Source: Folioceros fuciformis (Eukaryota). From it: DNA of 33,557 bases. Position 1 is the stretch's first letter; every line of letters begins with the position of its first letter. Under the pieces are notes generated by a model that ran no database searches, was not told the DNA's origin, and saw nothing but the letters and a program-made list of their open reading frames with translations. The position numbers and the translations under genes are program-made. Shown piece after piece: positions 2,754 to 31,858 of the stretch. The DNA lies in NCBI GenBank assembly GCA_049999805.1, contig JBNGIO010001516.1, forward strand, positions 1 to 33,557, written 5' to 3'.

Positions 2754-2837
2754 GTCTTCAAGTTCCCTCCCTTCTGCTTCTCTCGATGATTGAATGGTGG
2801 CAAATCAACCATTCCTGGAGTACGGGTTGTAGCTACG

Positions 2838-2915
2838 GATGTCAGTTCTTGCCCCACTTTCACCACTTTGTGAGATGTCAGTTCTGTTGCCCCACTTTCA
2901 CCACATTGTGAGATG
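2838..2915. repeat. Tandem duplication, 2 copies of a 36/38-bp unit
   Basis: gatgtcagttcttgccccactttcaccactttgtga (2838-2873) is followed by gatgtcagttctgttgccccactttcaccacattgtga (2874-2911) and then gatg. Confidence 0.9.
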
Positions 2916-3969
2916 AACGAACACAGATGCTACTGCGAGTGAGCTGCACAAACACGGATGGAGCCTGGAATTCGTTGTCGCTTCCGCCACTTATCCCCAC
3001 CATATTCATATAGTATTACAGGCTATTATCCACGACCCAGACTTTATCTCCTTCTCCCCATTGTCGTACTGGGGAGAAAACAGTACATCATTGTGTTGCG
3101 TGCGGGCTTGATGCCCGCATCCGGCATGCTCCGGGGATACACTTCATTGGGTCCTCTGCCAATACCTGCAAGCATCAAAGCTGCAGACTTGCTCAGCATT
3201 CCAAGAACTGCAAACCCCAGAGTAAAGACATCTGTAGAGTAATATCATGATATTGTATTATGTGTAATTCTACAACAGAGAGATCCATATGCCAGTAGAG
3301 CCTAGACCAGGAGTTCGTCTCACAGGTGACTCGGGAATGGCTCTGGACGGAAGCACAACATTAGCCAACTTGTCCAATCTCCAGTCCAGCAGAGGACGGG
3401 ACAGAGGAGATTGTGATACGTTGCGCTATGTCTGCTCCCCCGGCCTTCCTTCTAGTGGGGAATTTAATTGACGCTCCTGCTACTACCAAAAAATTGGGAT
3501 ACCCAAGGTATCGAAAACTGTATCTCTACCTACTTAAAGATAAACTTGCTGCTGCCCTTCCCGCCAGCACATGTAAGCTGAAACAGCTTGCCGGCCGACC
3601 GTGGGTGAGAAGGGGATCAGCAGGTGGCAAGCACCAGCACTGGACAAATCCAGCCATTCAGTGGCTGCATTCGCCGGCCAGCCGCCTTGCGCAGGTAATG
3701 GAATACACCATACATGTACATAAGTGCCCCTGGTCCAAGCACTGTCGGATGAGCCCTACCATCCGCTCCTCGTCAATATACAAATGAAGCAGGTACGCAC
3801 CGGCGCAGACCAATCAAACCTTGTGGAGGCTGATCAGTCGGCCGGCCGCGACGCCCAGACAAATCATGAGCAACAGCTCTGGCAATTTAGATGGGAATTG
3901 CCGGCCGAGCAAACTCGATGAATCAAAAGAACTTGTGTACACCAGCTCCAGCTTCCGCGCTCTGTACAT

Positions 3970-5802
3970 TCACTGCTGCGTGGCAAGCTCTTGCGCCGTG
4001 ACGTAGGTACCGTGAAAGCCATAGGGCACCCTAGAAGACAGGTGCACCTTGGCCACAGGCTCCAGAGAGGGAGACTGAGCATCCAGGACCAGGAGCTGCG
4101 ATTTCCCCGTCTCCTCGTTGTGCATGAAGGTGACAATGTAGCCGTCGTCCTCTGCCGCGTGAGGGTGCGAGGAGCGCGGCACAAAGCAGGGTTCTCCACC
4201 GTAGCAGTTTTCCGGATAGCGGATTCTCCCAACCATACTCGTCTCCGCTCTCGAGAGCAAATCCACCTTGGCTATGCCGGAAACCTTGGGCCACGGCTCC
4301 GCCACAGCCAGATAAGCGTAGCGGCTTCTCCTTCCGACAAACTTCTTGTTCACCTGACCCGCCTCCAGATTGAGGCCCGGTGTGATCTCCCTCCTCGTGG
4401 ACTGACCAGTGCGGCGATTGAGCCTGATCTCTGACAGAATGCTTGCCAGCGCCTGTTGGGACTCGTTGAAGATGCTGTCGGGCGGAGTCATGCAGGAGCC
4501 GATCACCACCACCTCATCCTCATTCTCCTCCCACGCGTTCCAGAGATGGAAGCAGAAGCAGTCGGGAACATCGATCCACTGCATCCGACTCTCATCCGTG
4601 TCGTAGCGCGGGAGAAGGCCGAATCTTGCCATCTTGGTGCCGTCATAGATGACCGGGGAGCCTCCGTGCAGCAGCTCCTTCATCTGAAACACCACCTGCT
4701 GGTCAGGCACGACCACGAAGTTCTCAGTGATGGCGAAGTCGTGCATCATGGTCGGCTGCTGCAGTGTGATGTCCACCTCGGGGCTCTTCACGCCGTGAGG
4801 AGACACATAGAAGTACTTGAGGAAGGGAGCCGCCAGCACGTTGTAGCTGAGATTGAACAATTCTCCCGTGCTTGCATCCACCTTGGGGTGTGCGATCATG
4901 GAGTGCACGCTGGCGAGCTGGCCGTTGAAGTCATAGCGTCCCAGCGTCTCCAAGTCCCCGTTCTCCGTGATGCGCACGTGGTAGGGCAGGTCATCCTCCG
5001 ACATAGCCAGAAGCCTGCCGTTGTGGAACACGAGTCCGGCATTGGCCACTCCCATCCCCTGCGAGGCATCCACCAGGCCGCACAAGGCCCTCGCTCCGTA
5101 CAGCATGAGCCGCGCCACGCCGCCATGGCCGTGCAGCTCCCCGATGGCCTTGGGAAACACCGGCCTGCCGGTCCTGGCCTCCTCCTCCAGCCTATAGGTC
5201 CGGGTGTATTTGCAGCAGTAGCTAGCGAGCCCTTGCTTGAAACTCACGGCATGCACCATGCCGTCTCCATCGAAAAAATGATGTCCTGCCAGCGGCGGGA
5301 ACTGCGGATTGGCGCCGTTGCGGAGATACATCCCTTCCAGGCACTCCGGGATGCTCCCTTCCACCTCCAGCTCGTGCTCCACCGGATGCTCCGACACTGG
5401 GGAGAAGTTGCCCTCCAGTTGCACCCGCGGATCCGCTGTGGACGGCAGTGGCTTGGCGCCTTCCAGCTTGGGAATCCAGTCCGTCTCGATCACATCCAGC
5501 GCCGATGCCGCCATCACCTGGAAGAAATTCCTCGATCTCCTGGCATCCCCGGGCTCCTCCTCCGCCCGGAGCGTCCGGCTCCCACTCCAGCTCCCGACAC
5601 AGGACACACTTCCCCGGGCATCGCTCACCGCCGATAGCCGGTCACAAGCGGGTAGCGACTTGCTGGACTGGTGGACGCTCAAACTGGCGGTGGCGCGAGC
5701 GCCAGCCGGATAGGCAGCAATCCGCTTTGAGGCGCAATTGGCGTGCACCCTGGGCGTGGGGCGGGCGAAATCGAGACACGCCAGGCTCTTCATGGTCAGC
5801 AT
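3970..5802 (-). CDS. NCED: 9-cis-epoxycarotenoid dioxygenase (ABA biosynthesis), intronless, with plastid transit peptide
   Basis: 610-aa single ORF. Ser/Ala/Arg-rich N-terminus and amphipathic [12 protein letters not shown] helix. Motifs [58 protein letters not shown]. All four Fe-binding His contexts are present: [35 protein letters not shown]. Confidence 0.95.
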
Positions 5803-6251
5803 TCTTCACCGTCCGGACACCAATTCCCGCACTTCCCAGGGCAGAATAATGTCACGGACTTGTGGCAATCCAACGCAGCGCAACCGGCGGGGAGGAGGAG
5901 ATTGCGCAAGCCTTCATGCAGAACTGGAATCCCCGGCAGCGAATACACGCACAACCACAGCCACTGGTGCAGGAGCAGCGCAATCCAAGAGAGTCGCGAA
6001 ACGCGAGCGAGCAGCAATCCGGGGTCTGCAGAGGCAGCAGGCAGTAGAGTGGACAGCGGGCAGCAGACAGGGCTATGGAGGAATGCGGAAGAGGGGCAGA
6101 GAGGCAGGAAGGAGAAAAGCGAGGGAGGAAGCAAAGGATTGATTGTTGTGGTCCCGAGAAGGCAGAGGGAAAGCTTGAAGCTTGCCGCAAGCGCAGTGCG
6201 TGTGCCTGGAGCCTGTGCGTTCCCAACGGCGGGGCTCGCGCGCTATATGGA

Positions 6252-6535: not shown

Positions 6536-7014
6536 CGCGTCTCCGCATGCCGTTCCGTTATGCAAACACATGTCCTCCTGGCTACAGTCCCCGTTACTTA
6601 TTTTGGCCCGTCACGCGGGTCGCGACTGGCCCCCCTGCCCGAATGCTTCATGATGCTGCCAATTTTTGGACAGCCCTGTTTCTGTTTGTGTCGCTCCTAG
6701 GACTCCAACTTCCAACTCCTTCTCCCAAGACTACTGGAATCTTCACTCTGCTGCCTCTTCCGATCTGCCACATGGTTCCAACTCCCAACCAGCGCGCGTT
6801 GCCCACTCTCCTCTTCAACATCTGCCTGCATCTTGCATGATGTTGCATCATGGGAGTACTTGTTGCTCTCAGTTTGGTATTGAATTGCCAAAGAACTAAA
6901 TTACCCACCAAAGCATGGAATGCAAGAGACAAAAGTTGCACAACCAGCGAGGAGATATCATCGATAAGGTAAGGCAAGAGACAATAGGACCACACCAAAG
7001 CATCCATACCTCTA

Positions 7015-9415
7015 CTATTCTAGTGGAGGTACGTCATCACAATTCAACTCTTCTTCATTACAAATGTTCCTTTTGCTGGCTTTGGTTTCCATTTCCTACA
7101 AAATACATGTTGGGTGCATTGAAGTATATGCAAGGATGAGGTTCACTTTTCCATTTTGCAGCGAGACAAGACAAGATAAGATAAGACTGTGAGGTAGATC
7201 ATGTGCTTACTTGGAGAGTCATGTTTTGATCCTTTTCAACATCTTTGATGCTACAAACTTTCACACTTTTCTTCTCTTCTTGTTTCTTGGGTGTGACTTG
7301 GCTGTTCTCAAGCTTTGCAGTGATGAAGGTCATGGCATCTGTCTTGGATTTTATTTTAGGCATTGTTACCGCAAGATTGCCGGTAATGGTGCATCTTTGT
7401 GCAATACTGTTGTCCATCTTTACCTATGTCATTCAAGATAGATTAGATAACTTATGATCAGAATTTTGATGTGTTTGATTTCGTTCAAGGCATACTTACC
7501 TCATCTGGAAGTTGCAGTTGTAATAGCTTTCCTTTAATTAAGATTCTAATCCAATTTGGCTGAATATCAATGTCGATAAATGAGGTATCTAAAAACTTGC
7601 TCACTTTCAAATCCAAAATCAGCATCTCCTTGCAATCACTTTCATGTAGTTTAAATTTCCATCTATCCAAGCAACAGTCTTATGAGGTGCAATTTGTATA
7701 CCTATGAACTTCCAATTGCTGAGCTTCAAACCCTAAACTAAGAGAATCTTAAATGTGTGTTCATATGTTTTGAACATACCCTCCCTCATTTTTCTGATAG
7801 ATGCGGCCTTCAGAAGGCAAGGGATCAAATCCTTTGCGTCTTTTGGATTTTTTCACTTCTTCAACCTTGGTCTAACATGCATTCAAGAAATAAGAAACTC
7901 TTTGTGCCAAAAGTAAGACAAAACTTTCAAAATGTTGGTCTCCCTCATTTTGTGTTCGAGATTGCAAAGAGTACAGTTTTTGGAAGGACATCTACATACA
8001 TCTTGACCTTGTTTTCTCATTTCTAGCAACTCTTCATGTTCCGCAATTCTAGTAGCTGGAGAGTAGGTGCGCACTTTTTCTCCTTTCTCATTTCTACATC
8101 AAACTCTTTGTTTGCACTAGGAAACTCATCATCTTAAGGTGGAGCAAGATAACAAAATTTTAGCAATAAATTACCTACACTTGAACTTCTTCATCCTTCA
8201 ATTCATTTTCCTTTGAAAGAGAATCATCACACTCATTTTGGTTCTCTACTTGTAGTTCATCACAAATTGTGCTATATTCCTACAAGCATGGTAAGCATGT
8301 AGATACAAATAAATGTCAATGAGAAGAAAAATCACTCATGTAAGAACTAAAAGGATATGTACCAAACTGCTTTCACATGTTGCTAACCTTTCTTGCTTTT
8401 TGACGTTCCAAATTTGTTACTCGTTGTGCATCCAACCTCTTGGATTGCAAAAAACAAGGAAGAGGAAGGGTGTTCTTAAGTACATTCATTTTTCTTCCAT
8501 CATACTCTATTAATTAAAATTAAGTTATAAATTCAGGGTGCTAACCTTGAGATTAGGAAGTGTTGCTATCACAAAGTTCCTATACCCATGAAAATCTTGA
8601 CAAGGATTCCCTGTCAAAAAACTGTTTGCAACTCAGAAATAATAGCCATGAAGGAGACAAGTACCTCGCCTTACTAGAACTCAAGAATAAGAAAACGATC
8701 AATATTAGAGAAGTACATTGCATTCTTACAGCTCTTTTAAGTGAATATTTAGTGTAAGACTTCTTAGGCTATGGAGAGTTTGTTTGTCCACAAAATTCAA
8801 GGTCAAATCAAGCTTCTCCAATGACTCACATCCTTCCAATCCCTCTACCTTTCATAACAACAAGAGCAACATTACAAGCAATTTGGGGCAACATATTTTC
8901 ACCACCCACATAGCCATATTCCAAGCTAGGGGTTCCAACCTTCACAATATTGTTCAAAGCCAGATTCAAATACTCTAGTTCTTTCAATCGTCGCAAGTTT
9001 TCTAATAACATGATGGTAATGAAAACTTGTAGTCAGATCCAAAAGAATGATGCAGAATGCAAGTTGTGTAAAACCGAAACCTATTCCACAACCATGTACC
9101 AAGTTTTCCAATCAAGTTGTTGGGCATGTATAAAATCTTGAGGTGAGGACAAACTTGGCCAAGCAGCTCGATCTTTTCAATTCCCTCTTCCTGCAATACT
9201 AGCTCCTGCAGTGCTATCCCTTGAGAAGTAGGTCAAAAATCGCAGCTCTTTGCTTGCTTGAATGTGCTCTAAATGAGATGCGTAGGGAATGAAGAGAAGG
9301 AGTTAGCAGCTGAGATGAAGGAGGATGAAAATACGGCATGCACCTCCAAAGTAAAGAGGATTCCTTCATTGTGCTCCGCTCGCCGCCTGATCATGTCAAT
9401 AGTGATGGGCGCCAT
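7015..9415 (-). CDS. LRRC6: Leucine-rich repeat dynein axonemal assembly factor (LRRC6/DNAAF11/TILB homologue), 12 exons, ~409 aa
   Basis: Manual GT-AG splicing gives exons 9415-9344, 9205-9100, 9001-8940, 8848-8730, 8621-8546, 8438-8388, 8279-8179, 8093-8000, 7871-7780, 7662-7500, 7423-7211, 7095-7015 (1230 nt, phases consistent). The protein starts [39 protein letters not shown] and continues with LRRs ([37 protein letters not shown]), an LRRcap ([22 protein letters not shown]) and a CS/p23-like part ([28 protein letters not shown]). It ends in the family-typical DDVPPLE. Confidence 0.92.
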
Positions 9416-12026: not shown

Positions 12027-13329
12027 CATCGCATTGCACCTTCCCTGCTTAACAGATTGACATGAACCACAAATATCAAGAGGAGCAACGGGCGATGGGA
12101 GATGGCTGACGGCTGACGGGCGTGGCACCCTTCTCTGCTTCGATCATACGGGCCTACGAACAATGCTTCCAGACCCGGGGACTGAGCTATGCACGCGTCC
12201 TTTCTTTTATTCACCCCGTTCCATGACATAACTTAGTGAAGGGAACACGCTTCTCCCACTCTCTTCCCTCAGAATTCCCTGACTAACACATTGGGCCACA
12301 ACTGGGGCAGGGCAACGTTTTTAATTCGTGTTTATTGCCCCATTCTTTTTTTCCCCTGCTCGTCACCGGAGGACACGACCTCACTGCAGACGTCCAACAC
12401 GCATGGCCAACGTCGATGCGCACAACCTTCCTTCCCAGCCTCCGTTCGTCGTCTCCAAATTCCAACCGGGCCCAGCGCCTATTAATAAGGCGGGCAGGCA
12501 GGTGTTGCAAAACCAGACCCGGCATCAAACGGGGATCGGATCCGGGTGACAGAAACCTGGTGCAGGCACCGGCCATGGCCACCAATTACAACTCCTACGC
12601 CTCCCTTCCGCAGACCAGCTTTTCGGCTGCAACCCTTAGGGGCTCTTCCTGGCCGTTGGGCACCCATGTCCCATGTGCGTTACGGTGACGCGTACATTGC
12701 ATCGGTCGATAGATGTGAAATTGGGCGGAGCAGGCCCGACACATGTGCAGGCGGGTCGAGTACAAGTCACTGTGCTCGCTCACTAATCGACCGAGAGTTA
12801 GCAGACAGGTGAAGATGGGATGTGTACCCTGACTTAGGCATCGGGCAATCGGACTTTCTCCCTGCTGCCGACACATAGCATCCACACAAAATTTGTGTGC
12901 ATAACGCGGGTGCTGGTCAAAGATGACGGGAAGGGAAGGCATGCACGTCGTCTGCAGCCTGGCGTGCCTGACCTGACACAGCACTCCGTGTTGCACGCGA
13001 CATGGGTACGTAGACTCCCTGCCTCCACTTGCTGTCCGACGCAACCAGAGTACAAAGCTGAGCAGTTTGCTTGCCCCGAAACCACGTCACTAGTAACGCC
13101 GCCTGGTACCAGTTTACCAGGATGTGAGAACAAGGACGCAACGAGGGAAGGAAGGCAGGGAAGGAAGGAAGAAATGTCTGCTGCTAGAACCTCCTACAGA
13201 AGCTTCGGGGAGTGTGTTCATGTGTGAGGGCAAGACCGGAACTCGTTACCGGCCAAGGAAGGAACACTGATCTGGGGTTCTAGAACACGGCAGTGCAACA
13301 GGTATCCAGGTCCAGCCTTTGTCCCCTCC

Positions 13330-16300
13330 TCACCCGAGCTCCAGGCTGGCCGCGTCGTCTTGCTTCACCACCACGTCAACCAGGTCGAAGCTCTGTGCGA
13401 TGTCACTGTAAGCTTGGCACACAATGAGAACGGTGCCTTGTGGCAGGTCTCGCAGCGCCGAAATCACTCTCGCTTTGCCCTCCCCGTCCAGATGCTGCAG
13501 TCAAGTGCAGTGCGGTTGCCCGACATCAGAGAGATGGCATGACTTGTAAAAGGCGTTCAACTTCACTTTACCAGAAAGATGGTTCAACTTGATATGCGTA
13601 TCACGTCATGAATGACAGCTGCTTCTTACCTGCAGCACCTCGTCCAGAACCAGAAGATCACAGTGCAGGCCGCCTCTCTCGGCTGCAAGCTCAGCGTACC
13701 CCAAGGCCAGTGCCAGTGCCTGCAATCGACCACCATGAGCTTGATCAACATCCACATTAATAACGAACACACATGGACTAGGTGAAAAACAGGCCAAGGA
13801 CATGTGCCCCTCACCAGCCTGCGACGCTCACCCCCGCTCAGCTGGCGGAGGGCACGTTCCTCGGTCGTACCGTCCGCCAAACGGACAGCAGCTATCTTCT
13901 CGATGCTCTCCACACTAGTCTTGGTTGATTTCCGTTCCCTGGTAGGTTTCAACAAAAGGTCCAATGCCCCTCCGGAGAAAGCATGTGCGAAACGAGCTGT
14001 CCGTTCTTGGAGCTCGGCCAATGCACTTTCCAACACGTAGCTCTGCAGCACGGAGAAAGATGCTTCATGTGTGTGAGCCCCATGTGAACAAAAGCACCAA
14101 GATAGTAGGTACCGAGGCACTGGAAGATCCTAGTACCTGGATACCGCTGTGGCCAAATGCTGCATCTATTTCCTTCAGCCATAGGGCGGATTGCTTTGCT
14201 TGCTCCAGGGAGGCCACCTTCTCCTGCAGTTCCCTATCCACTCGACTTTGGTACTCGGAGAGGGACTTGTACTCTGCTGCATAAAGGTTTTTCTCGGTCC
14301 TTGCCACATCCAGGGTCCGCTGGACATCCTGCAACCTCCTGGTGCAAACCCTTGCATCAGCCACTTTTCCGTTAAGCTCCACCACCAGTTGTCGCAGTTG
14401 TTCCAGTTTTGGTTCAAGGGAGTCATCGAAAGCAAGAGCTTGATTTTGGCTTTCTCTACGATCTGTATCCGCAGATTGAGAGTGCAGTTCGGGGGACACG
14501 TCCTTCAGTTCACGTGAGATGAAGCTGCAAGCTTCCTCCACACAAACTTTCGCGGATGCAACGGCCTCCCAAGTTCTGTTCACCTGACGACACAGTCAAT
14601 TCAAAGTATGAGCAATACGGATTGTAAGAAGACTGTCGCGTAAAGCCTTCTCAATCCACAAACTTACCCGAGCAAGAACCTTATTAGACTTCTCCTTCTG
14701 CCAAGCACGTGCGCTCTCTTGCTGTCGGCTCTCTTCCATCGTTGCTGCAGTCAAAGAGAGAATTTTTTGTGCCTTCTCCAATCTTGCCTGGAAATGTGTA
14801 GGTCTGTCAGTCACAGCATTTCGACGACTTACCTCAGCCACTGTCCAACAGATAATACAAACATGAAAAGGTTTGCGACACTCACAGCTTCCAGATTCAC
14901 TATCCTCTGCCGCAGGGCAGTGATGTCCTTCGATAGGCGTGATACGTGCTCAGAAATATGACTCTCAGAAATATCCTGGTGACAGTGGTCACAGAACAAT
15001 GTGTTCGACGTGCTCTCCTGGAACTTCTTCAGCGTATTCGCCCTCTGACTTACAGCATCTAGTGCGAGTTTGTACTGAAACATTCAGAGTCATGTCCATT
15101 CAGACACATCCAGGCGATTGCTTGCATCGCAGCAGTGCATCCAAGACTCCTAGCCCGTCCACCCCTACAACAGGGGTGAGGGGTGGAAATGCTGACCTCT
15201 ACGTCGATCTCTGCTTGCTGTCTCACAAGTGAATCACGTTCCTCTGACCGAATGCTAAGGGAAGTACCACTGAGTTCTTGTGGAGGAACTGAATCAGAGA
15301 CCAATAACTGCTCCAGAGAAATTGCAAAAGAATCCCACTCCCTTGCAGAATCTTGCACCATCTGCAAACAGCGAGTGCACTCTGCTGATGCTCTTCTCAG
15401 CTCCACTTGAGCCAGAAGAAGTTCAGATTCCATACGAGACAATTTTCTGGTCCTGGAAACATGAAGCAGAGAGTTGTGACCAAACCATGCACATCACTGG
15501 TGCTCCTTCAAACACTGTATCACCGAAACACTTGGCTATTTCCAAACGCCTCCTCTCATATGCATCACAGGAGAATAGATGGAACTACTTACTGTGATTG
15601 CTCCCAATCATGCACACGTTGATACGAAAGCTTCACCTACAGGTTGGACAGCTCAAGACACAGCTGAGGTAAGCAAGAATTCCGTTTTGGTCAATACTTG
15701 CAGGTACTTGATATCCCTTTTTTATGTCCAATTCTTCGTGTCCGAGTAGAAAGAGCAAAATCGTGTAAAATTCCTCTCCTGCACCTGATCTGAGAGCTGC
15801 ATGTTTTGTTCGGATAATTGGGCAGCCGCTCCTCCCATGTTCTCTACTTGATCTCGCACTTGCCTAAGGTCTGTGGAGCTTTTCTCCTTTGCTGCAAACC
15901 AAATTTCCATCAAGACTACTCTGCTGAGCTCCTCCTGCAGAACCAACTCTGCCATGAGAGACCTATACTTCATGACCTAAAAGCATAGAAACCTTGGCTA
16001 CATCTTACCTTGAAAGTTTTATCGTTAGCTTCAAGCAATCCACCAACCCCATACTGCCCATGAAAAACGGCTCGGTGCAATAGAGTCGTATTTCTGTCAG
16101 AAAACATGATTAGTAAGAAGGTAAGTGCCGTGCCAGTACAAAGCAGGGGCATTGGCAAGAATGATTGACGGATAACACTTACAAGGATGCGTCTATTCGT
16201 TCTTGAGTCATCTTAATCTCCTGGCATGTTTGATCCTCTTCATCCAAAATAAATCTCAGCGATTTCCGACTGAACCAGCATGTACGCTGCTGGTAAGCAA

Positions 16301-18874
16301 TGTCGAACACCGACCATCACAGAAAGGAACAGCAATCCTGTGTGACATTACCTGCCTGTCGTCCGCTCAATTATAAAAGGCTTCTCATTGACTGTGCCCT
16401 CCACCTGGACTCGAGCTCGTTTCGCCTTGTAATGGACAACGTCGGATGATGTTAAGCCTTTCGCTGAGTCTGGTCGTGGATCTGTTGAACCTGAAATACA
16501 AGTTACAGCATACCTGACATTAGTGACGGATCTTAAGGGAAAGCAACTGCTGGGACACAAGAGCAGATTTACCTGTGATCGCCCACAGGGGAGCCATTAC
16601 AAGGGTAGTCTTCCCAGCACCATTACTATCAGCTCCATAGGAATCTGAGTTTCTTCCAGAAACAACCCGTATTCCCCGCTGTGCAAGTGGATATGTCACA
16701 GGATCCAAGAAGGGGCCAAATCCCTCCAGCTCAACAGACTTCAACACCAGAGAAACTACAATTGAACAAAGCTTCAGTAAGGGAACACAACAGACAGGGA
16801 CGCAAAATCACGACAGCTTTCTGGAGCCGTTGTGAAAACCTTGAGGCCTCTGAATGGCATTAGCAGGCAACGGCAACGAATGGAGGATCTCTATAGCCAT
16901 TTTCGTGGCCCCAGTACTCATGTTCACACTCTTTGCAAAAAGTCTGAACAGTTCAAACGCATTCTGCAAGGTCAACAAATGACGTAAACACCCAAGCTGA
17001 AAAATAATAGATTCCTAGAGAGCAACGTTCACCATAACGAAATCAGCCACCTCTACTGACCAGGTCCTCAGCATTCTCAATGCGGGGCCTCGGAGCAATG
17101 CTCGGAAACACAATGTCAATATGCACTCCTTCACGCTTAAGCTTAGTCTGTTCCAAAAGCCAGGTGAACCTCAGTGAAACCTACCACTGCATGGGGCACA
17201 TAATACCCCGAGATGTCCGTATGCAACCATGATACAAAGAAATTCGAACAAGGCCATACAAAACAGGCTACCAAGAGTTTTTTGGAAGCGTTTGACAGTG
17301 TCTCCGTCGGCACGAGCCAGCGTACACGGTCACCTTTCCGGAGAGATTGTATGGCATCTGTGTCTAGCATTTCATTTTCATACACATAATGGCGTGGCCC
17401 AATGTCAATGGGGATCTCACCAACTTTCTGCAGGATCAGGAAATTCACGATGGTCAAAGACGTCCATAGCTTGCACGTGAACATGGTTAAACAAGAAAAA
17501 GGAGTTGCAAGATCCCGTCCAATAATGCTTACTCACTTCCCACTGATGATTAAGAAGCAAAAGCCTCTTTGCCTGTCCAGTTTCGCTGGCAGAAACCTGA
17601 TAGGGCGAGCCAACGTACTCAACCTGACTGCCCTTGACAACATGCGGCTTATGGTAGTGGCCCGTAAACACTGACAGATGTGAAGGGAAAATGGATGGAT
17701 CAATGCCATCGCTTGCCTGCCGTTGCTCATTCATGTAAGCCCCAACCTGATGCAGCTCACGCCTGTTCCTGGTTAGTCATTTCAGCAACCAAGTGAAAAC
17801 GATGTAACTAACACATGAGAACGTACCACGTCAAGGTGGGCGAAGATGACCCTTGTGTCAGAATGGCTTGCCACAGCATCCTTGATAACATCTGGCTCCC
17901 GTCGAAAGGGTAGCCACAATGCTCCCAAGTACTGAGTGGGCTCTGATATGACTTTAATAAAATAATTTGTAGCTTCCAGCACACTGAGAGCATGAATCTC
18001 CCCGCCATGATTGACCTGCAGAGTGTACGTATAAAACTTGATACGCTCATGGTAGTGAGCTGTGACTGGGCATCTTCAGAGGGTGCTACGAGAAAGACCT
18101 GGTCATGGTTGCCCGGTATGAAAATTGTTGGACAGGACCATGTCTGCAGCTCAGAAACGGCTAAGTTCAACAGCTCGACTGGGAGAGCTCCTCTCGTATG
18201 CCAAAAGTCTCCTAAAAATATTATCCCTGCATTCCTGGACAGCACAAAAAAGTACAGTTGAGAGCTTGAGCAAAAGAAGAGAGCAGCCTCTGACATGCTG
18301 TGTCCACAGGGAGGAGGGAAAAAACGTCAGACCTTGCAGATGCCTCGGCATGCACAGTTTGAAGCACTTCCAAGCAGATGTCAGCAGTTCTCCTGCTCAA
18401 GTGCAGGTCCGAGAAAACCACCCATGTCTTCACCTCTGCCCATATATCGGCATCTGTGAGCAGTCCCTGAAGCAAAAGACAGATGTTGGTCAACATTCGC
18501 TCTCAACAAACGGGTCCCATTCTTCACCGACGGACCTTCAAACACTCTACCTTCAACCTTTGTGCTGTAGATGCAAAAGGCGACAAGTTCGGATTCACAA
18601 ACTCGTCAGGCACCACCGTGTTCTGTTGTGCTTTCAACCCTCGGAGTAGGCTCTCCTGAAAATGCAAACTTGCCGCAACGCAGCGAAGCAGCCTCTGGCC
18701 TTCTCCCCTCTTCCTTAACAGCCTGTGCTCGAGATCATGTCCATACGTCAGCTGAGCCAAACCTTGCACCCTCCAGTGAACCAGCCTCGCGCAATGGCAC
18801 CTCAAACCGACGTCTTTGCACCTCACAAGAACAGAGGAAGGCAAGCGCAGAACTCCAGGCCCTGAGAGCACCAT
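13330..18874 (-). CDS. SbcD/Mre11-like nuclease fused to SbcC/Rad50-like ABC ATPase (single-chain SbcCD), with putative N-terminal organelle targeting peptide; 21 exons, ~1185 aa
   Basis: Exons 18874-18536, 18466-18333, 18234-18099, 18015-17827, 17746-17537, 17427-17272, 17147-17061, 16963-16840, 16755-16573, 16490-16352, 16269-16183, 16093-16009, 15934-15785, 15636-15593, 15452-15197, 15074-14886, 14787-14668, 14583-14137, 14042-13815, 13719-13630, 13494-13330. All introns are GT-AG, the total is 3558 nt, and phases are consistent. Metallophosphoesterase motifs: VFSDLH, FLGDFWH, IPGNHD, IFAHLD, FTGHYHKPH, YVGSPYQ. ABC motifs: LKSVELEGFGPF, Walker A SNGAGKTT, Q-loop VFHGQ, CDHC hook, signature LSGGERRR, Walker B/D-loop LLVLDEVLQHLD. 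The start ATG is inferred. Confidence 0.9.
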
Positions 18875-20444
18875 AACTAGGAAACAGCCTGGGCCAAGGT
18901 CCTCATCGCAGAAGCAGCTCCCCCGCCAATCCACAGCCCAAGCTGCATTCGCACCGTGGTCCTCGTATGTTCATGGGCACTTCAGCTCAGTCCTCGCATC
19001 AAAGAACTGGACCCTTCACGAGAGTGCAAGAAGATTAAGGACTGTTCAAATTCTTTAAAAGATCAGGGAAAAACCGATTAATTTTCGCCCTTTGAACTGA
19101 GGGGAGGACAATTTAGCGGGAGGCCACTGTGGACAGTACACATATACCTGCTGCCTTATTCATGGTCAGCAAGAGGTGATGGGATCAAGCACATGGAGGC
19201 AACAAAGCCATGGCACTGACTCCTTCCATGATACATCCTAATGGGGTCGGTTTGCTCATGGTTCCCACCAGCACCACTGAATCCCAATTCATGTCTCTCA
19301 TCCAGCCCTTGAATCCAGCTCCGAACTTATTTAGTTGGCCCTGGACAGTCGGCCAAGTACATCCAAGGGCACAGAATGCAATTGGAGCCATTGTTCGTCC
19401 TGGCACCCGACTTTTCGAGCTCTGAAGTATCCCGGTGACGACCTGCCCAACAAGTGACGATGGCGGCAGCTGCCGTCCCAAGCAGGGAGTGCGGTCGAAG
19501 GGCTTGCAGTATCTGCTATGGTTTTGAGAGGTTGCCACCTCGTCGTGTAGGGCACTTGTGGCTAGCGAGATGGCATTTCAGGTGCAGGAGAATTGATTAA
19601 CCATGGCGACCTGTCATAGATCTGCATTTAGAGAGAGAATTGGTGAACAATGGTGTGGGCTGGAGCGGCGTGAGGAGGAGGGCCCGCCTTGCTTTCCCCG
19701 ACGCCAGCTGCAAATGCTATTCAGCTGGCAAGAACGGGCTGTCTTTCACCAGAAGTAGCTTCAAGGCTTGGCTTGATGGGAGAGCCCATGAGCTAAGCAT
19801 GTTCGACTTAGGATTGAAGCAACCGAGCAGAATGTTTTCAAAAGCCCAGAAACCAATTGAACTTCATCATTCTAAGCGAAAATCGGGTTTCCTGTCACAA
19901 GAGTACCTCATTTCCATGTAAGGGGAGATGTTCATTGAGCATTGGCAATGAGCAAAACTGCAAAAGCCTTATGTTAGATGGAAATATATCCTTCCATCTT
20001 ACAACAGTTGGTTTGTGGGCAAAGAGGCAGAATACAAGCTTTGCTCCCTCGCAAAGGTGCTATGTGGAACATCTTAGCTAGAGATGCAAGGAACACATGT
20101 GTAAAGGAAAATGTAACGGCACTTTCTCTACAGGCATATAATATTCACAATAGCGCAAAAGAAGACCTTAGAGACAAAGAGACAACGTTGCCTTCGGTAA
20201 GTGGATCAGCTTCGTTTTGTAAATAGAAGAAAGATCGAAGAATGCACGCACTTTTGATTGTTCATTTTTGTTAATATGGTGGTTACTTGGCAAAACCTGG
20301 TAAAAAATGGTGAGACGAGATAATAATGATAAATACCATGATATAATTATTTTTATTTTTATTACATAAAATATTTAAAAATCAACTTTAGTTGAATTGA
20401 GTTCAGCAAAATTCTGGTGAAAAGGAAAGGGCTAAATAAACTAG

Positions 20445-23400
20445 TTAAGCGGACGCCACCCGAGAAGGAATGGGCTGCACGATGGGTTTGCCTGGTGCTC
20501 TCTTGAGAAATAGCAAACGCACTTCTGGTCCTAACTTTTCGTTGAGCTTAATCATAATCAAGAATAAGCATCTATACAGCAACATCTGTATAAAAATAAT
20601 ACCAAGATTTTCCCACTTGCCTCTGCTGGTAGCAACTTGAAAATAATCGCGAACAACTTCTTCCCCGCTAATCAACACCTGATTCTGCGGGTAGTCTCGA
20701 GGCCGAAACTGCAGGCCTAGAAAGTCGTTCTGGAATAATCCCTGACATCCCCCATACAGTATTCCAGTTTAGATGAAAAAGGATGGAATATGTACGACAT
20801 AATAAATGGATACGAATAACAAGTACGCACCGCTTACGTCACGCTTTGCTATGAACTACGTGAGCGTATGACGAAAAAGCAAGATGGTGGATTCGCTATG
20901 GGCCAGACGATACGAGCATGCACAGAGGTTGAGAATCCCAAGCAAACGCACCTGAAAGCCGTAGGTGTGAAACGCGATGTAGGACACGGGGTACCGCCAA
21001 ACGGGCTTGGGCAGGTCATTGGGCAAGCGGAAGAAACCACCGGTTGACATGAAGAGTCCCTACAGCCCAGCATGAGTGTTAGATATGGAAGACTTGGCAA
21101 TCCGCACAGGAAGAAAGGACGAAGGAAGCCGAACAGACCTGGATTCCAGCTCCGATGACTATGCCCATGAGGAAGTTTGGAACTACGCTTGAGATTGCCA
21201 TCATCAAGCCCTCCACTGCAGATGTGGTGGCGAAGATTATCAAGACGAAGTATAGGAAGTGGATGAAACCGGGATGCAGGCCCACCAGGAAGTACATAGA
21301 GGCTCCAGAAATGAAAGCGATGAGAAGTAGGAACGGAAGTGAAGCGAGGGTGTTGCTGATGACAAAAGCTACCACCCCGTAGTGCCCGTTCAGCCGCTCT
21401 CGAGAGAACACCTGGTAGTGTTTAGTTGGGTTGTGAGACTCTTTGAAATTGCCAAGTTTGTTAGGAGGACGCAACAGGCATGGTTACAAAGTGTACCTTC
21501 ATCTCCTCTACAAAAGAAGGGAATCCGCCGATGGCCATGAAGGTGAGGAAGCTTACGACGAAAATCAAGCACGAAGCTCTTGCCTGTACCAGCACCACCA
21601 ACAAATGGCAAGGAAGGATGTTAAGGATGAAGGCTAGGATGCACAGACTGGAGATGTGGGAGCGTGAGTTGAGAGGCTCAGCACTCACACCTGTATGGCA
21701 TCATAGCTGTGGCCGACGTTGTAGTATATGGTTCCCATGGCCAGGCACAGGGCAAGATACATTGCAAGACGTAGCCAGTAGTAACCCACGTCTCTGGACA
21801 TGTTGACGAAGGACCTTTGGGTGAGGGTGACACTCTGCATCAGGGTGCTGGCTTGGCTTCCTCGTGACTCTTGCAAGGGGCGATTCTGCACCAGGTTGAT
21901 GTGGTTTACAAAGACATGATGGACCAGAGACGACATCGCCGAACAGAAGTGGGGATGGCTGTATGTGCAGCTTGGTGTTGGGTAGGAGACGACATACCAT
22001 TTTAGAGACCTGTTCAGCGGTATCTGCAGCATTTTGAGCAAAGCTGGACGACTGGTACTTGGTCACTAGCATGTCCACTCGTGATGCGGTAGACATTGCT
22101 TTAAGCGGATCCAAATCTTCAGGGTCAGCTACGATCTGATCATCGAACCTAGCACTCGGTGTCCGGGACGCCTGCACGTGCCACAATCATGTGGTGAGAT
22201 ACTGGAAGAGCACGACAAGGTGTAAGCGCGAGAAGGTGATGGGATGGTAGATGAATTCCCACCGCCAGAAATCGGCGAGATCCTTGAACAGCAACCGAGA
22301 CTTTGTCGAAGTCCGCGTTGATAGAACGAAGAAAGTGGTCAGCTGGGTTCCGCCATGGTGGACAGGGTACACCAGCATCCACAAAATGCTGATTCAACAC
22401 GGGCCATCCGATCACCACACGCAAATGACATGCACAGGATCAAGCGCGCATGGAAATCCAGCTGGTGCCTGCTCTGCCAACCTGATTCGCCTCCGCAGCG
22501 GCACCAAAGTATACCGTCCTGCCACCAGATAGGAGAACGAGGTTGTCGAATAGCTCGAAGACTTCACTGCTGGGCTGGTGAATAGAAGTGATGACAGTTC
22601 GTCCGTCTCGAGCTAAATTCTTCAACGTAGTTGTAACAAAGAAGGCTGCAGCACTGCAACGAGCCAGCCACCCATTTCAGCGCACAATCAGCACTTAGTC
22701 TCAGACTGGAAGCAACTACAACGAGAGAAGCCAACTCCCAACATGCACAGTCCTCGCACACCTATCCAAGCCGCTGGTAGGCTCATCCAGAAACAACAAG
22801 CGAGGCTTGGTGAGCAGCTCCAAGGCAATGGTAACCCGTCTCCTCTCACCCCCGCTCACCCCTCGCATATGCCAGTTCCCAATTGGCGTGTGCAAAGCCT
22901 CCTGAAGACCCATTTCGTGGATCGCGTTGTTGATAGTCTCCATCTTCTGTGCCCTGGGCATCCTATCGGGAAGCCGGCAGAAAGCCGAGTACATGATCGT
23001 CTCAAACACAGTGAGCGTCCCCAACAAATTGTCATCCTGCGTCACATAGGCCTGCAATCGACATGGACAGCACCGGTGATCCCCCAAGATAAGAGCAACA
23101 ATCCCAGCCCCGCAACTCATTTCCTTCATGCCCACTCACCGCCACGCCGTAAGACAGCCTCTGCTTGTTCCCATTGAGCCACACGTGCCCCGTCTGGCTC
23201 ACATTCTTGGCCAGCCTCCCTGCTCACATGACAATGTGATCCACATGTAGCACATCCTGTCAAGCATTGTGAGAGCGACATCATAAAGTCCTTCCCGAAG
23301 GAACTGACAACACTGTAGCGTACCACATACTGTACCTGCCAGAGTGTCGAGAAGCGTGGATTTGCCGGAGCCCGAAGGCCCCATGATGGCAGTGATCCGC

Positions 23401-23534
23401 CCAGGCTCTGCGTAGCCAGTCACGCCATCCAGCAGATTGTGAGACCTCCCCGACGCCCATGACGCCGTCACTGTGAGATTCCTCCAGGCCAGATGAGCTC
23501 CCGGCAGGTCGTGCTCGCCTCCGACCTGCGCCAT
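20445..23534 (-). CDS. ABCG: ABCG half-size (WBC-type) ABC transporter, ABCG11/12/15-like (cuticular lipid export clade), ~11 exons
   Basis: [184 protein letters not shown]. Stop TAA at 20445-20447. The NBD precedes the TMD. Confidence 0.93.
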
Positions 23535-23907
23535 CTCATCTCATCTCATCTGGCCGACTACAGTTGAGAGCGCTCTTAACGGATTTCGTGAGGCCAGGAC
23601 ATTCGTTCCCAACGTGAGGACAGCCGGTGAGGAGAACGGGACGGTGGGCACTGAGTTGTCTTCCGTATTGCTTGTGTCAACTTGGCTCACGCCAGACACG
23701 TACTCATTGACACTCTTCAACACATGGGGCGGCGTAAAGTGGCCTGAAAGTTCCACCACACTTGCCTCTCTACTTCACCGACGACAGCCCGATTTTGGCA
23801 CCCGAAATGAGTACGCTGACGCTGTCTTGTGCCCACTGCACGCAGCCCGTGTGAATCTCGTTCAAAATATGGCTATTAATTCAAGCGAGGCCCTTTAGCC
23901 TCACACT

Positions 23908-23916: not shown

Positions 23917-24084
23917 AATTTCTTTCCCGTAAAGGAGGAGTGTGTTGTAAACTGTGGGGGTGGCCTACCTTGGCAGATGGCGTTATGATGCGCGCATCTG
24001 CACGCATTAGCCAGTCACCTACCGGCCCGGATCACAAACCCCGTGAATGTTTGTCCGGAACAGCATCCCAGCCCCGAAGTCTAT

Positions 24085-24250
24085 AAGGTTATACATTACT
24101 TTAAAGCTTTATATTTAATGAATTATATATTTCTAGCTATAATATATAAATTTTATACTGTAAAATATTATAATATTTATTTGATATGTAATTATATATT
24201 TCAATATATATTAAATAAAATAATTATGCATATTTTTATTTAAATATCAT
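24085..24250. other. Very AT-rich low-complexity tract separating the gene-dense zone from the TE zone
   Basis: Almost entirely A/T, e.g. atatttaatgaattatatat...taaataaaataattatgcatatttttatttaaat. Confidence 0.7.
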
Positions 24251-24518
24251 CTATTGTAAGGCTATCCTAAGAACCCATCTACATCACCCATTCCTCTTTC
24301 CATTTGTCTGTTTCTTTGAATTGAAGTATTTTTTATTATTGAAAAAGAAATAAAAAAAAGTGTCATCTACTCTAAAGAGATAAAAAAGTCTCATCTACTC
24401 TAAAGATTAGAGGAACAACCCAAGCACAGCCAAAAGGGGTACTAGCCCCTTGGAACATTATTCTCAAACTTACATACCATTTGTCTATTTCTTACTCTTG
24501 AGGATTCTTGAGTAATAG

Positions 24519-25200
24519 CTAAAGAGGGTATGCCAAACAATCATCCCAATATGTCATAACAATGGAGGCATTAAACCTTTCAAGTACTCTACCATTCAAA
24601 TATATATATGCCAACATACCTATCCTTTCCATATCAATCTTGGCTCTGTTGTCAATCCAAATATGTTTCCAAGTAATCCAATTGCGTTCTCCATCTACTG
24701 CTATGGGTGGAGTATTCAATAGCTTGGCACCATTGTACTCCATTCCTAGTTAACCCTAGTGTGAAATGCATTTTGACATCCATAGCTAAAATATTAGGTT
24801 TAAATTGGTAGCTATGAAATTGAGGAATTACACATCTCCCATCACGAACAATGTCACCAAGTTGTTGTAGCATCTTGTCTCCTTTGTTTTGTTTAATATG
24901 AGGTATAGCTCTAATTTTGTCATAGAATTTAAGATCAACTAAACTTGTAGCTATAAAAGCATCATGCCAACCATATTGTCTCCTATCTGCCCAGAAACTA
25001 AGTAGCTCTAATAATACCTCGTGAAACAATACGCTCTAAAAATTTTGTTCACAAATATCTACTCTTCCATCCAACAATAGTAAAAAATTGATTGTAGTTG
25101 CCTCCTTCATGTGGACATCTATAGCTTTGTATTTCCAAAATGCTTCATCTAAAGTTAGTTGCTCACTCTCTAATTGATAAAGAGCATCTAAAGTAGGTTG
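24519..25200 (-). mobile_element. Degenerate hAT transposase fragment (C-terminal dimerization domain region)
   Basis: AKLLNTPPIAVDGERNWITWKHIWIDNRAKIDMERIGMLAYIYLN (ORF 24519-24743) matches the hAT dimerization pattern A.KLL..P...A..ERNWS.W..I....R..L...R...L.YIY.N. Upstream frames are broken by stops and frameshifts. Confidence 0.7.
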
Positions 25201-30974: not shown

Positions 30975-31378
30975 TTATATCCTTACAATAAAACTTGTCC
31001 TTACATGTAACTATAAAATCTCATATACCATCTTACATCAAACACTCTCTTACATGATAAGAAATTTGGTTTGATTGTAATTACAACTATAAAAAAAAAT
31101 ATAAAAGTAAACTGTAACAGAAGACCTCAACCCCTACTCTTTCGTAGAACTTCTAGAGTTCTTTCTAATAATATACTATATCTACATATTGATGGATAGA
31201 TTATTATAGGTTTTTCAAACTATGTCGTTATGATCTTTTAATTATCTTGTACCTCTTGGATTTGATGATAGCCCGTCCTTAAATGATTTAAATCTTGCAT
31301 CTACGTGATCTTGAGTGTTCAGGCTATGAGTCATCGTCAACAACATTTACAACATTTAAGAGTTGGTTGAGCATTCTA

Positions 31379-31800: not shown

Positions 31801-31858
31801 TTATATATTCTTGTATAATGCTCATTAAGTAGTTATCAATTGCTTCAACACCATCATG

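Follow-up and report, generated by a model that had tools for sequence, protein, structure and literature searches.

On the minus strand of the window (the whole 33,557-nucleotide stretch of Folioceros fuciformis DNA analysed here), positions 18874 to 13330 encode one polypeptide in which a Mre11/SbcD-like half precedes a Rad50/SbcC-like half (Table 1). When the gene was rebuilt from the sequence, 21 exons joined in phase with GT-AG borders at 20 of 20 introns (74–148 nt), in agreement with the initial annotation; the product, however, is 1180 residues long, not about 1185. The coding sequence of 3543 nt runs without internal stop from the ATG at 18874, the first in frame downstream of an in-frame stop, to the TGA at 13332-13330. 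Alignment of the spliced model to six annotated fused proteins (P0002, P0003, P0007, P0010, P0011 and P0015) is collinear from one end to the other.

Table 1. Exons, motifs and junction intron of the fused gene (all on the minus strand; residue numbers are those of the motifs in the spliced product)
Feature	Position	Residues	Evidence
Whole fused Mre11/SbcD-like + Rad50/SbcC-like coding region	13330..18874		model, translation, collinear alignment, spliced contigs
Exon 1: ATG + 108 codons, unconserved basic N-terminal extension	18551..18874		composition; X1 + X2 contig cover
Exon 2: phosphoesterase motif I FSDLH (18415-18401)	18333..18466	126-130	model; tblastn 18454-18332
Exon 3: motif II LGDFWH (18215-18198), motif III GNHDQ (18113-18099), predicted dimer-interface helix	18099..18234	160-165; 194-198	model, dimer interface residues
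Exon 4: motif IV FAHLD (17844-17830)	17827..18015	256-260	joint 17746/17827 in X1 + X2
Exon 5: motif V GHYH (17662-17651)	17537..17746	290-293	both flanking joints in X1 + X2
Exon 6: capping-domain region	17272..17427		model; joint 17427/17537 in contigs
Exon 7: nuclease-half end, conserved PRIENAEDL (17087-17061)	17061..17147		model, X2 joint, X1 cover
Exon 8: helix-loop-helix-like linker ending NAIQRPQ	16840..16963		joints 16963/17061 + 16755/16840 in X1 + X2
Intron 8, 84 nt, GT..AG, separates nuclease and ATPase halves	16756..16839		skipped in X1 + X2 contigs
Exon 9: Rad50/SbcC-like ATPase start, Walker A GADSNGAGKT (16636-16607)	16573..16755	494-503	model; Pfam AAA_23 E 1.2e-05
Exon 10: ATPase lobe I	16352..16490		model, contig joints
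Exon 11	16183..16269		model, contig joints
Exon 12: Q-loop FHGQYG (16065-16048)	16009..16093	600-605	model, contig joints
Exon 13: outgoing coiled coil begins	15785..15934		model; joint 15934/16009
Exon 14, 44 nt	15593..15636		model, contigs
Exon 15: coiled coil	15197..15452		model, contig joints
Exon 16: zinc hook CDHC (14993-14982)	14886..15074	796-799	model, motif, conserved Cys
Exon 17: returning coiled coil	14668..14787		model, contig joints
Exon 18: returning coiled coil	14137..14583		model, contig joints
Exon 19: ATPase lobe II, signature LSGGE (13841-13827)	13815..14042	1088-1092	model, contig joints
Exon 20: Walker B LLVLDE (13656-13639)	13630..13719	1118-1123	model, contig joints
Exon 21: D-loop HLDGEG (13494-13477), H-loop region IVCQAYS (13425-13405), TGA	13330..13494		joint 13494/13630

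Transcript evidence comes from public runs of two studies, X1 and X2, the latter from a related species. Among the joints listed for the spliced contigs of X1 (7 of 7 at least 99% alike to the window), at least 15 of the 20 that the model predicts are present, exact to the base. The joint between the two halves (16755->16840) is present in contigs of both runs that extend 124 letters or more to either side of it. In addition, one 4844-nt contig of X2, 90–95% alike, runs from 13328 to 18987; because it covers the whole gene, this is one mRNA rather than two genes. The initial annotation had placed the junction intron at 16839-16756, exactly as in the rebuilt model, and had the nuclease half reading straight into the ATPase half. 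This is borne out by the bridging contigs and by a single open reading frame between the halves, with neither stop nor new start: exon 8 ends in NAIQRPQ plus one base, and exon 9 gives the two further bases (Val), followed by SLVLKSVELEGFGPF. Transcripts ending between 17061 and 16755 had been named as the sign of two genes, but contigs bridge this interval and one spans the gene. Overall, the locus is almost certainly genuine: an expressed nuclear gene, with fused architecture, of a seed-free land plant.

For exon 7, an acceptor at 17180 was passed over for 17147 on the basis of an X2 joint (17148->17275); by arithmetic on the cover table, this choice also fits X1 cover in the bin 17080-17273. 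Intron 13 (15637-15784), upstream of exon 14, is also found unspliced in one 203-nt contig of X1.

The five phosphoesterase motifs, Walker A, Q-loop, hook, signature and Walker B, recorded as intact in the initial annotation, were all found in the spliced product, a set far beyond chance. In an alignment of 50 sequences, the phosphoesterase and ABC motifs, including the D-loop, occupy invariant or nearly invariant columns, and the window product keeps all nuclease metal ligands. The hook cysteines (C771 and C774 of the Ceratodon orthologue P0010) do not vary in alignment A1 and show conservation of 90% or more in A2. Pfam models recognise the orthologue P0002 (Metallophos, 27.3 bits with a cut-off of 21.5; AAA_23, 39.3 with 27; SMC_N, 44.7 with 40); on the exon 3 piece of the window, Metallophos scores 21.4 bits against the same 21.5. 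Exon 9 also served as query of a homologue search.

Structure prediction points to the same family. When the AlphaFold2 model of P0010 (pLDDT 78.6) was searched as a whole with Foldseek, the best match was Rad50 (7zr1_D, E 2.4e-17), and E. coli SbcD (7yzo_B and 4m0v_A, TM by target 0.56) and SbcC (7yzp_C, 0.62) were also matched. Homodimer prediction for the P0010 nuclease domain scored 0.48, compared with 0.00 for the best of three controls, and so passed; of solved structures, 20 of 30 homodimers and 1 of 23 single chains attain this mark. The pass may stem from solved Mre11 dimers known to the predictor. Half or more of the contacts recur between runs, partner pLDDT is at least 82, and the predicted interface (P0010 residues 138-154 and 170-184) covers an invariant RGALPVELLN helix. 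The homodimer proposed in the initial annotation is consistent with this modelled dimer and with the CxxC hook.

E. coli SbcCD (PDB 6s6v, 6s85, 7yzo, 7yzp and 4m0v) has in common with the plant protein the fold of each half, with TM by target of 0.52–0.59 for SbcD and 0.62 for SbcC, as well as the metal-ligand motifs, ABC motifs, CxxC hook and predicted nuclease dimer, but is built from two chains instead of one. Identity in the fold alignments is 15–19%, and the NCBI curated SbcC/SbcD models (TIGR00618 and TIGR00619) score far under their cut-offs (e.g., 24.8–30.7 versus 478.5 for TIGR00618). Unlike SbcCD, the fused plant protein has an N-terminal extension and no conserved H-loop His, and its gene is eukaryotic and intron-rich. 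Nuclear MRE11-RAD50(-NBS1) (Chaetomium 7zr1, human 9q9h) follows the same plan of head, coiled coil and hook, but identity in Foldseek is only 10–14%. Nuclear MRN consists of separate subunits with a far longer coiled coil and an NBS1 partner, and acts in the nucleus.

Among viruses, Mimivirus R555 is a gene without introns. It encodes a Mre11-like and Rad50-like single chain that, in the 2011 tree, groups elsewhere, in a clade with metagenomic relatives of its own, and some of its catalytic residues are replaced (Yoshida, Claverie and Ogata, 2011; PMC3175470), whereas the window protein keeps all. Phage relatives were found by tblastn in 408 records, and those listed are mostly annotated as two genes; Lactobacillus phage 3-521 covers P0010 residues 132-1157 in one piece. 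Identity to T4 gp47/gp46 and other phage pairs is only 20–25%, and the phage coiled coils are shorter (PMC3175470).

The fusion class is not new. Fused Mre11/Rad50 proteins, including those of a moss, Micromonas and a diatom, were published in 2011 (Yoshida, Claverie and Ogata, Virol J 8:427, PMC3175470), with Physcomitrella A9RK34, Micromonas C1N0B1 and C1FJU6, and Phaeodactylum B7FXD6 forming a 'moss-diatom-prasinophyte group'. In that study, the fused forms fall outside the canonical clades and coexist in Physcomitrella with canonical separate MRE11 and RAD50; an origin in the viral gene pool and a role unlike that of the regular complex were argued. The window protein shares the part order of this group (nuclease at the N-terminus, then a linker, then the ATPase with its coiled coil at the C-terminus) and its lineage, being 49% identical to Physcomitrium P0008, but represents a different lineage of land plants. 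Fused isoforms of 1157–1175 aa are recorded for the Physcomitrium locus LOC112281621. In the literature searched, no biochemical, genetic or localisation data were found for any fusion-family member; the window protein is a further member of an experimentally uncharacterised family.

Full-length collinear orthologues are present in liverworts, mosses, a lycophyte, charophytes and many chlorophytes, and the initial annotation was right to expect homologues in algae and seed-free plants. Among the matches listed, no seed plant or fern is named, and the named members are all photosynthetic eukaryotes. The tree of fusion proteins follows species phylogeny: embryophytes form one clade (SH-aLRT 98), Spirogloea is sister to it (99), and one side of the tree holds the chlorophytes (90). 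Within the embryophyte clade, the window protein has its own branch (length 0.7) outside the moss and liverwort clades. In 2011 a sporadic distribution was seen and lateral transfers were proposed (PMC3175470); the present listing, by contrast, has the gene in the green groups named above, with a tree that tracks the species. The gene is best explained as an orthologue of the moss-diatom-prasinophyte group, inherited vertically in the green lineage.

A MR-type nuclease mechanism is quite probable. In a single chain, a Mre11/SbcD-type Mn-phosphoesterase nuclease (residues about 115-450) is followed by a short helical linker and a Rad50/SbcC-type ABC ATPase (about 455-1180) with an antiparallel coiled coil and CxxC zinc hook. 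By analogy with the family, two chains would pair via their nuclease domains, by ATP-driven engagement of the ATPase heads and by zinc shared at the hooks. The paired chains, equivalent to M2R2, would clamp DNA ends or hairpins and cut them in an ATP- and Mn-dependent manner.

As to ATP use, the Rad50-type H-loop His is not conserved in the fusion family, a point that the initial annotation does not raise, and therefore ATP turnover may not be the same as in the textbook enzyme. The family has a conserved Gln in this region followed by a variable position, which is H in Marchantia and Ceratodon, Y in Riccia and the window (C-Q-A-Y-S), and G in Tetraselmis; which residue corresponds to the Rad50 His is uncertain within one or two positions.

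Where the enzyme acts is suggested by its N-terminus. At least 40 residues precede motif I in 19 of 20 orthologues, and this extension is acid-poor in 19 of 19 (median 4.2% D+E versus 13.9% in the rest of the protein); in the P0010 model, residues 1-80 have pLDDT of about 30. A long, unconserved, basic, acid-poor and disordered N-terminus is typical of a transit peptide and not of a nuclear protein. As the extension is basic, acid-poor, unconserved and disordered, import into an organelle is suggested by this composition-based heuristic, and an organellar location has roughly an even chance.

The same enzyme could be nuclear or cytosolic, working alongside canonical MRN as a further, specialised nuclease of MR type that might cut hairpins and palindromes like SbcCD or attack viral or transposon DNA. 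Its architecture would be identical in either location, the window's own extension (6.4% D+E) is acid-poor to a moderate degree only and less so than most, Rad50, SbcC and Mre11 go unmentioned in the main texts of two organelle-proteome papers, and the argued viral origin and non-regular role (PMC3175470) would fit. This reading is nevertheless rather unlikely, given the extension kept across orthologues and the photosynthetic membership of the family. A loss of normal ATP hydrolysis with the fold kept, which would leave a DNA tether or sensor, or an ATP-binding-only nuclease, instead of a cycling SbcCD-type machine, is improbable. The Gln/Ala/Tyr at the window's H-loop position and the variability of the relatives' only nearby His speak for it, but the alignment to the Rad50 His is uncertain, the metal ligands are all present, and little or no variation is seen across the 50 sequences at the Walker A Lys, Q-loop Gln, signature Ser/Gly, Walker B Asp-Glu and D-loop Asp, which speaks for selection on a working ATP site. 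That two adjacent sbcD-like and sbcC-like genes were misjoined, or that the locus is a contaminant or a recent bacterial or viral transfer, has hardly any probability left: the nearest prokaryotic loci found do have separate genes (L001, ORFs of 370 and 633 aa with a 4-nt overlap; L002, a stand-alone ATPase of 1041 aa), but this is already contradicted by the junction bridged in two runs from two studies, 20 spliceosomal introns, a junction peptide LPA(K/N)(L/A)IQR.QV conserved in five land-plant orthologues, the tree, unremarkable plant genes as neighbours (an RPE65-family dioxygenase and an ABCG-type transporter), and identities of only 20–28% to prokaryotic and phage relatives.

A single-chain MR nuclease with the family mechanism and organellar import is, taken as a whole, the likely explanation. 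The protein would be imported into plastids and/or mitochondria, for which the table of a 2020 review lists no RecBCD or RecFOR homologue in plants. Its task there would be the processing of double-strand ends in the service of RecA-dependent repair or recombination-dependent replication, a role of the kind played by T4 gp46/gp47, which resects ends for recombination-dependent replication (PMC3175470).

Exons assembled by hand on the minus strand and then checked by script give a gene of 21 exons that runs from the ATG at 18874, the first in-frame ATG downstream of an in-frame stop, to the TGA at 13332-13330. Each of the 20 introns (74-148 nt) starts with GT and ends with AG, and the 3543-nt CDS has no internal stop and encodes a protein of 1180 aa. 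The in-phase joining of 21 exons described in the initial annotation is reproduced by this model, with a slightly shorter product than the earlier estimate of about 1185 aa. The intron that splits the nuclease and ATPase halves has exactly the boundaries first assigned to it (16839-16756): exon 8 ends in NAIQRPQ plus one base, and exon 9 supplies two bases (Val), followed by SLVLKSVELEGFGPF. For intron 6, an acceptor at 17180, which adds 11 aa, was dropped because homologues have no insertion there; the retained acceptor at 17147 agrees with an X2 joint and with X1 cover, the latter by our own arithmetic (see below for these sequencing runs).

The fusion is expressed as a single mRNA. A run search provided four public sequencing runs (X1-X4), none listed as RNA on record, all of which were compared with the window. 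In X1, each of the seven placed contigs matches the window at 99% or more and skips introns; contigs of this kind must come from spliced RNA. The 15 X1 joints that are printed (introns 4, 5, 7-12 and 14-20) all lie on model boundaries, ten further joints not being among those listed, and joint ends of CT..AC on the plus strand correspond to GT..AG on the gene strand. At introns 1, 2, 3 and 6, the X1 covered length per bin agrees with the model by our own arithmetic. The nuclease/ATPase joint (16755 to 16840) has 124 letters on its shorter side in X1, and the 1857-nt contig bearing it extends from exon 13 to exon 1 by its record coordinates. In X2, from a related species in another study (90-95% alike), a single 4844-nt contig covers 13328-18987 with the same joints; X3 and X4, which share the study of X1, have no contig placed on the window. 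The alternative of two genes, with transcripts ending within 17061-16755, does not survive these data, because spliced X1 and X2 contigs bridge the junction. The gene model and the transcripts together support the initial reading of a single chain with the nuclease preceding the ATPase.

Two further features of the transcripts concern intron 13 and the 5' end. Both long X1 contigs are interrupted at intron 13 (15637-15784), and a 203-nt X1 contig (15609-15811) is unspliced over it, with a depth of 9.9 versus 17-46.7 in spliced contigs. This suggests that intron 13 is partly retained; as the intron is 148 nt long, retention would shift the frame. In the 4844-nt X2 contig, about 674 nt upstream of 18987 have no fit to the window at 90% likeness, leaving a loose end at 18987. 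This segment could be a diverged long 5' UTR of the relative, or a join to a neighbouring transcript.

Every nuclease and ATPase motif listed in the initial annotation is present in the spliced product. The nuclease half has all five phosphoesterase motifs (FSDLH, LGDFWH, GNHDQ, FAHLD and GHYH), whose columns show invariance or at least 90% conservation across a 50-sequence alignment. The ATPase half has Walker A (GADSNGAGKT), Q-loop (FHGQYG), the CDHC zinc hook at aa 796-799, signature (LSGGE), Walker B (LLVLDE) and D-loop (HLDGEG), the ATP-site motifs being divided between its N- and C-terminal parts. In the numbering of the Ceratodon orthologue P0010, G471, G473, K474, S1070, G1072, D1103, E1104 and D1110 are invariant in the 50 sequences and Q575 is at least 90% conserved.

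The family departs from Rad50/SbcC at the H-loop and its presumed catalytic histidine. This histidine is not conserved in the 50-sequence alignment; in this region only Q1134 (P0010) is kept, and the residue two positions past it varies between His (some members), Tyr (Riccia and the window protein) and Gly (Tetraselmis). The corresponding window region is IVCQAYS (13405-13425, aa 1150-1156), with C-Q-A-Y-S at aa 1152-1156. In a profile alignment to M. jannaschii Rad50, T-H-H faces Q-a-h of the family consensus, in which the 'h' column is Tyr in the window protein, and no register of this alignment places a histidine at the window H-loop. We read the missing histidine as probably a sign of altered kinetics rather than of a dead site, in view of the invariance of the other ATP-site residues.

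Relative to the textbook families, the Pfam superfamilies are recovered at modest scores, whereas the curated bacterial SbcC and SbcD models are missed widely. Individual window exons match Pfam Metallophos and AAA_23 on their own, and the exon 3 piece alone scores 21.4 bits against the PF00149 cut-off of 21.5. PF00149 is above this cut-off in six of eight relatives scanned (21.5-27.7 bits; the orthologues P0014 and P0020 are not listed). In four orthologues the NCBIfam SbcD models reach 20.6-29.5 versus a cut-off of 77.65 (TIGR00619) and 17.9-26.1 versus 450 (PRK10966), which argues for a superfamily member rather than a bacterial SbcD equivalog. On the ATPase side, the orthologue P0002 scores 39.3 versus 27 for AAA_23, 44.7 versus 40 for SMC_N and 25.7 versus 27 for SbcC_Walker_B; the last model is above cut-off in P0014, P0020 and a further orthologue, P0019. 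NCBIfam SbcC TIGR00618 reaches 24.6-30.7 versus 478.5 (P0002, P0010 and P0011). The closest solved relatives by sequence are archaeal Rad50 heads (3aux, E 4.7e-09), with SbcD and SbcC ranking lower.

The predicted fold was obtained with AlphaFold2 and the 50-sequence alignment for P0010, in place of the window protein (mean pLDDT 78.6, pTM 0.61). In this model, residues 1-80 are disordered (pLDDT about 30), the phosphoesterase and capping domains are confident, two helices (386-413) lie ahead of the ATPase, the ABC head is assembled from the two ends of the ATPase half, and long helical arms (599-767 and 780-995) meet at the hook cysteines C771/C774. Foldseek ranks Rad50 from the Chaetomium MRN complex first (E 2.4e-17). 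The Mre11/SbcD structures 7yzo_B, 7yzp_A, 4m0v_A, 4lty_A, 3av0_A and 3tho_B match with a TM by target of 0.52-0.57. The Foldseek matches span E. coli SbcD (TM by target 0.52-0.59), Mre11 of archaea and of Thermotoga, and E. coli SbcC (0.62).

The homodimer modelling called for in the initial annotation was performed with two copies of the P0010 nuclease part (residues 85-420) and three controls. The predicted symmetric dimer scores 0.48 versus 0.00 for the best control; the mark for this score is reached by 20 of 30 solved homodimers and 1 of 23 solved single chains. The runs share at least 50% of contacts, with a partner pLDDT of at least 82, and the modelled interface (138-154 and 170-184) includes the family-invariant helix RGALPVELLN. 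As Mre11/SbcD dimers are already solved, the dimer may come from the memory of the predictor, and it indicates likeness rather than binding.

From the anatomy shared with Mre11-Rad50, we infer that the family mechanism would apply to the window protein. Two chains would pair via their nuclease domains and would be joined further by ATP-dependent engagement of the two ATPase heads and by a zinc that two CxxC hooks share. This assembly would clamp DNA ends or hairpins, which Mn in the phosphoesterase site would cut, and fusion would make an M2R2 stoichiometry obligatory. In the available text of the paper that defined the fusion class, fused M2R2 is argued to be sterically compatible with the Thermotoga complex (Yoshida et al., 2011; PMC3175470).

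A search with exon 9 identifies full-length proteins that combine Metallophos, AAA_23, SbcC_Walker_B and SMC_N in a single chain in Marchantia, Calypogeia, Riccia, Ceratodon and Diphasiastrum, and also a full-length Tetraselmis protein annotated as a calcineurin-like phosphoesterase. The window product is collinear with annotated fused proteins from the nuclease core to the C-terminus, its exon joints are free of indels, and the linker LPA(K/N)(L/A)IQR.QV is kept in all five land-plant proteins. Identity to the moss, liverwort and lycophyte proteins is 47-49% over about 1070-1130 aa, with no group closer. A profile search yielded 297 proteins at E <=1e-10. The best 120 of these include land plants (liverworts, mosses with Sphagnum and Physcomitrium, and the lycophyte), charophytes (Mesostigma, Chlorokybus, Spirogloea, Closterium and Chara) and chlorophytes (Tetraselmis, Ostreococcus, Bathycoccus, Chloropicon, Picocystis, Coccomyxa, Trebouxia, Chlorella-type algae, Dunaliella, Volvox and others). 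No seed plant or fern is named in these best 120 of 297, in the 27 exon 9 matches, or among shorter relatives of the nuclease half (the best 120 of 212); as for stand-alone nuclease forms, the last set consists mostly of fragments on short contigs. Flowering-plant proteomes are heavily represented in the public sources behind the protein collection, and the lack of a named seed plant suggests that the family was lost before or within seed plants.

A maximum likelihood tree of 27 rows (quick search, with SH-aLRT as the only support measure) tracks the species tree: chlorophytes fall to one side (90), embryophytes group as one clade (98), and the zygnematophyte Spirogloea is their sister (99). 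The window protein has its own branch, 0.7 long, inside embryophytes and outside the moss (100) and liverwort (99) clades. This agreement with the species phylogeny argues that the gene is old and vertically inherited in the green lineage, and excludes a recent transfer or a contaminant.

The novelty implied in the initial annotation is not supported, because the class was published in 2011. In the available text of that paper, Mre11/Rad50 fusions are described in Mimivirus and twelve other cases; Physcomitrella A9RK34, two Micromonas proteins and Phaeodactylum form a 'moss-diatom-prasinophyte group' (91% bootstrap), separate MRE11 and RAD50 genes are noted in the moss as well, and the fusion distribution is read as sporadic and due to lateral transfer (PMC3175470). 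The window protein is orthologous to the moss and prasinophyte members of this green-lineage group, as judged by identity and by the tree, which has Ostreococcus and Bathycoccus among its rows. Physcomitrium LOC112281621, presumably A9RK34, has fused isoforms (1157-1175 aa) whose only names are 'uncharacterized' or 'calcineurin-like phosphoesterase domain-containing'. The 2011 paper is the sole literature match of the Marchantia and Physcomitrella identifiers. In the open-access literature, we found no functional, structural or localisation study of moss-diatom-prasinophyte group members, and no report of purification, localisation or knock-out of any eukaryotic fusion member.

A pattern-based scan of genome contigs gave 86 pattern matches, leading to four loci of 25-28% identity, namely one with separate genes in a Clostridiaceae MAG, two SbcC-like genes of Spirulina and a fragment from Binataceae. 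Unlike the single chain of the window, the nearest prokaryotic loci found have the two parts as separate genes. A tblastn search against phages gave 408 records, all below 60% identity, of which 15 are listed at 20-25%; neither this search nor the prokaryotic scan separates a cyanobacterial from a viral origin. The neighbouring genes in the window are ordinary plant genes. The carotenoid cleavage dioxygenase would be NCED-like, a reading that goes beyond its Pfam match, and weak tblastn matches of the ABC signature region at 22740-22970 arise because an ABCG-type transporter lies there. G+C is 0.32-0.37 at 7001-9000, 24001-25000 and 31001-33000, versus 0.47-0.63 in gene-bearing stretches. No long ORF with a Pfam match was seen in these low-G+C segments, an ORF at 24652-25035 being without a match, and they may be intergenic or repeat DNA.

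Coordinates of the prokaryotic comparison loci and of the genes neighbouring the fusion gene in the window
Feature	Sequence	Coordinates	Strand	Description
Separate-gene locus L001	Clostridiaceae MAG	2851-5861		ORFs of 370 and 633 aa, overlap 4 nt
Separate-gene locus L002	Spirulina	2809-5934		1041-aa SbcC-like ORF, then 437-aa ORF
Carotenoid cleavage dioxygenase	window	3970-5805	minus	intronless 611-aa ORF, full-length Pfam RPE65, E 3e-133
ABCG-type half transporter exons	window	about 21079-23540	minus	ABC_tran 23199-23540 and 22716-23135; ABC2_membrane 21079-21483

The cellular location of the family is addressed by its N-terminal extension. At least 40 residues precede the nuclease core in 19 of 20 orthologues; the exception, Coccomyxa with 16, possibly reflects a short gene model. 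In all 19, the extension is acid-poor (median 4.2% D+E versus 13.9% in the rest), and by medians it is basic and Ser/Thr-rich. It is unconserved in the alignment and disordered in the P0010 model, and that of the window protein is Arg/Leu-rich and less acid-poor (6.4% D+E). In composition and disorder, the extension resembles a typical plastid or mitochondrial targeting peptide.

Plant organelles employ replication proteins of phage-like type, together with recombination-dependent replication. In phage T4, gp46/gp47 resect ends for recombination-dependent replication, as stated in the available text of the 2011 paper (PMC3175470). As excerpted, a table of organellar recombination factors, given in a review for Physcomitrella, Arabidopsis and Chlamydomonas, has no RecBCD/RecFOR homologue, and the fused protein is absent from it; an excerpt of another review gives organellar end processing hypothetically to RecJ and RecQ. 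Taken with the features of the extension, these review gaps, the T4 analogy and the phage-like organelle replication give an organellar end-processing role about an even chance, and a nuclear or cytosolic role instead rates as rather unlikely. The main texts of two organelle-proteome papers (PMC13419835 and PMC11135702) contain no mention of Rad50, SbcC or Mre11. The organellar role can be put in a fuller and more tentative form, which is possible though on balance doubtful: a phage-type, self-contained Mre11-Rad50 machine would be taken up by plastids and/or mitochondria in green algae and seed-free land plants, where it would give the missing double-strand-end resection for RecA-dependent repair and recombination-dependent replication, and would later have been lost towards seed plants, with another nuclease taking over.

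To the known fusion class, this analysis adds proof from transcripts that the fusion occurs in another land-plant lineage, a probably vertical and broad inheritance in the green lineage as opposed to a sporadic one, with no seed plant among the matches listed, the change at the H-loop, and a somewhat firmer basis for the organelle hypothesis. If the organelle lead fails, the gene would be just an ordinary orthologue within a family already described. A Mre11-Rad50 in one chain is a naturally compact form of a central DNA-repair machine, and it may represent a candidate nuclease for the end processing of organellar genomes in those bryophyte and algal models in which knock-outs are easy.
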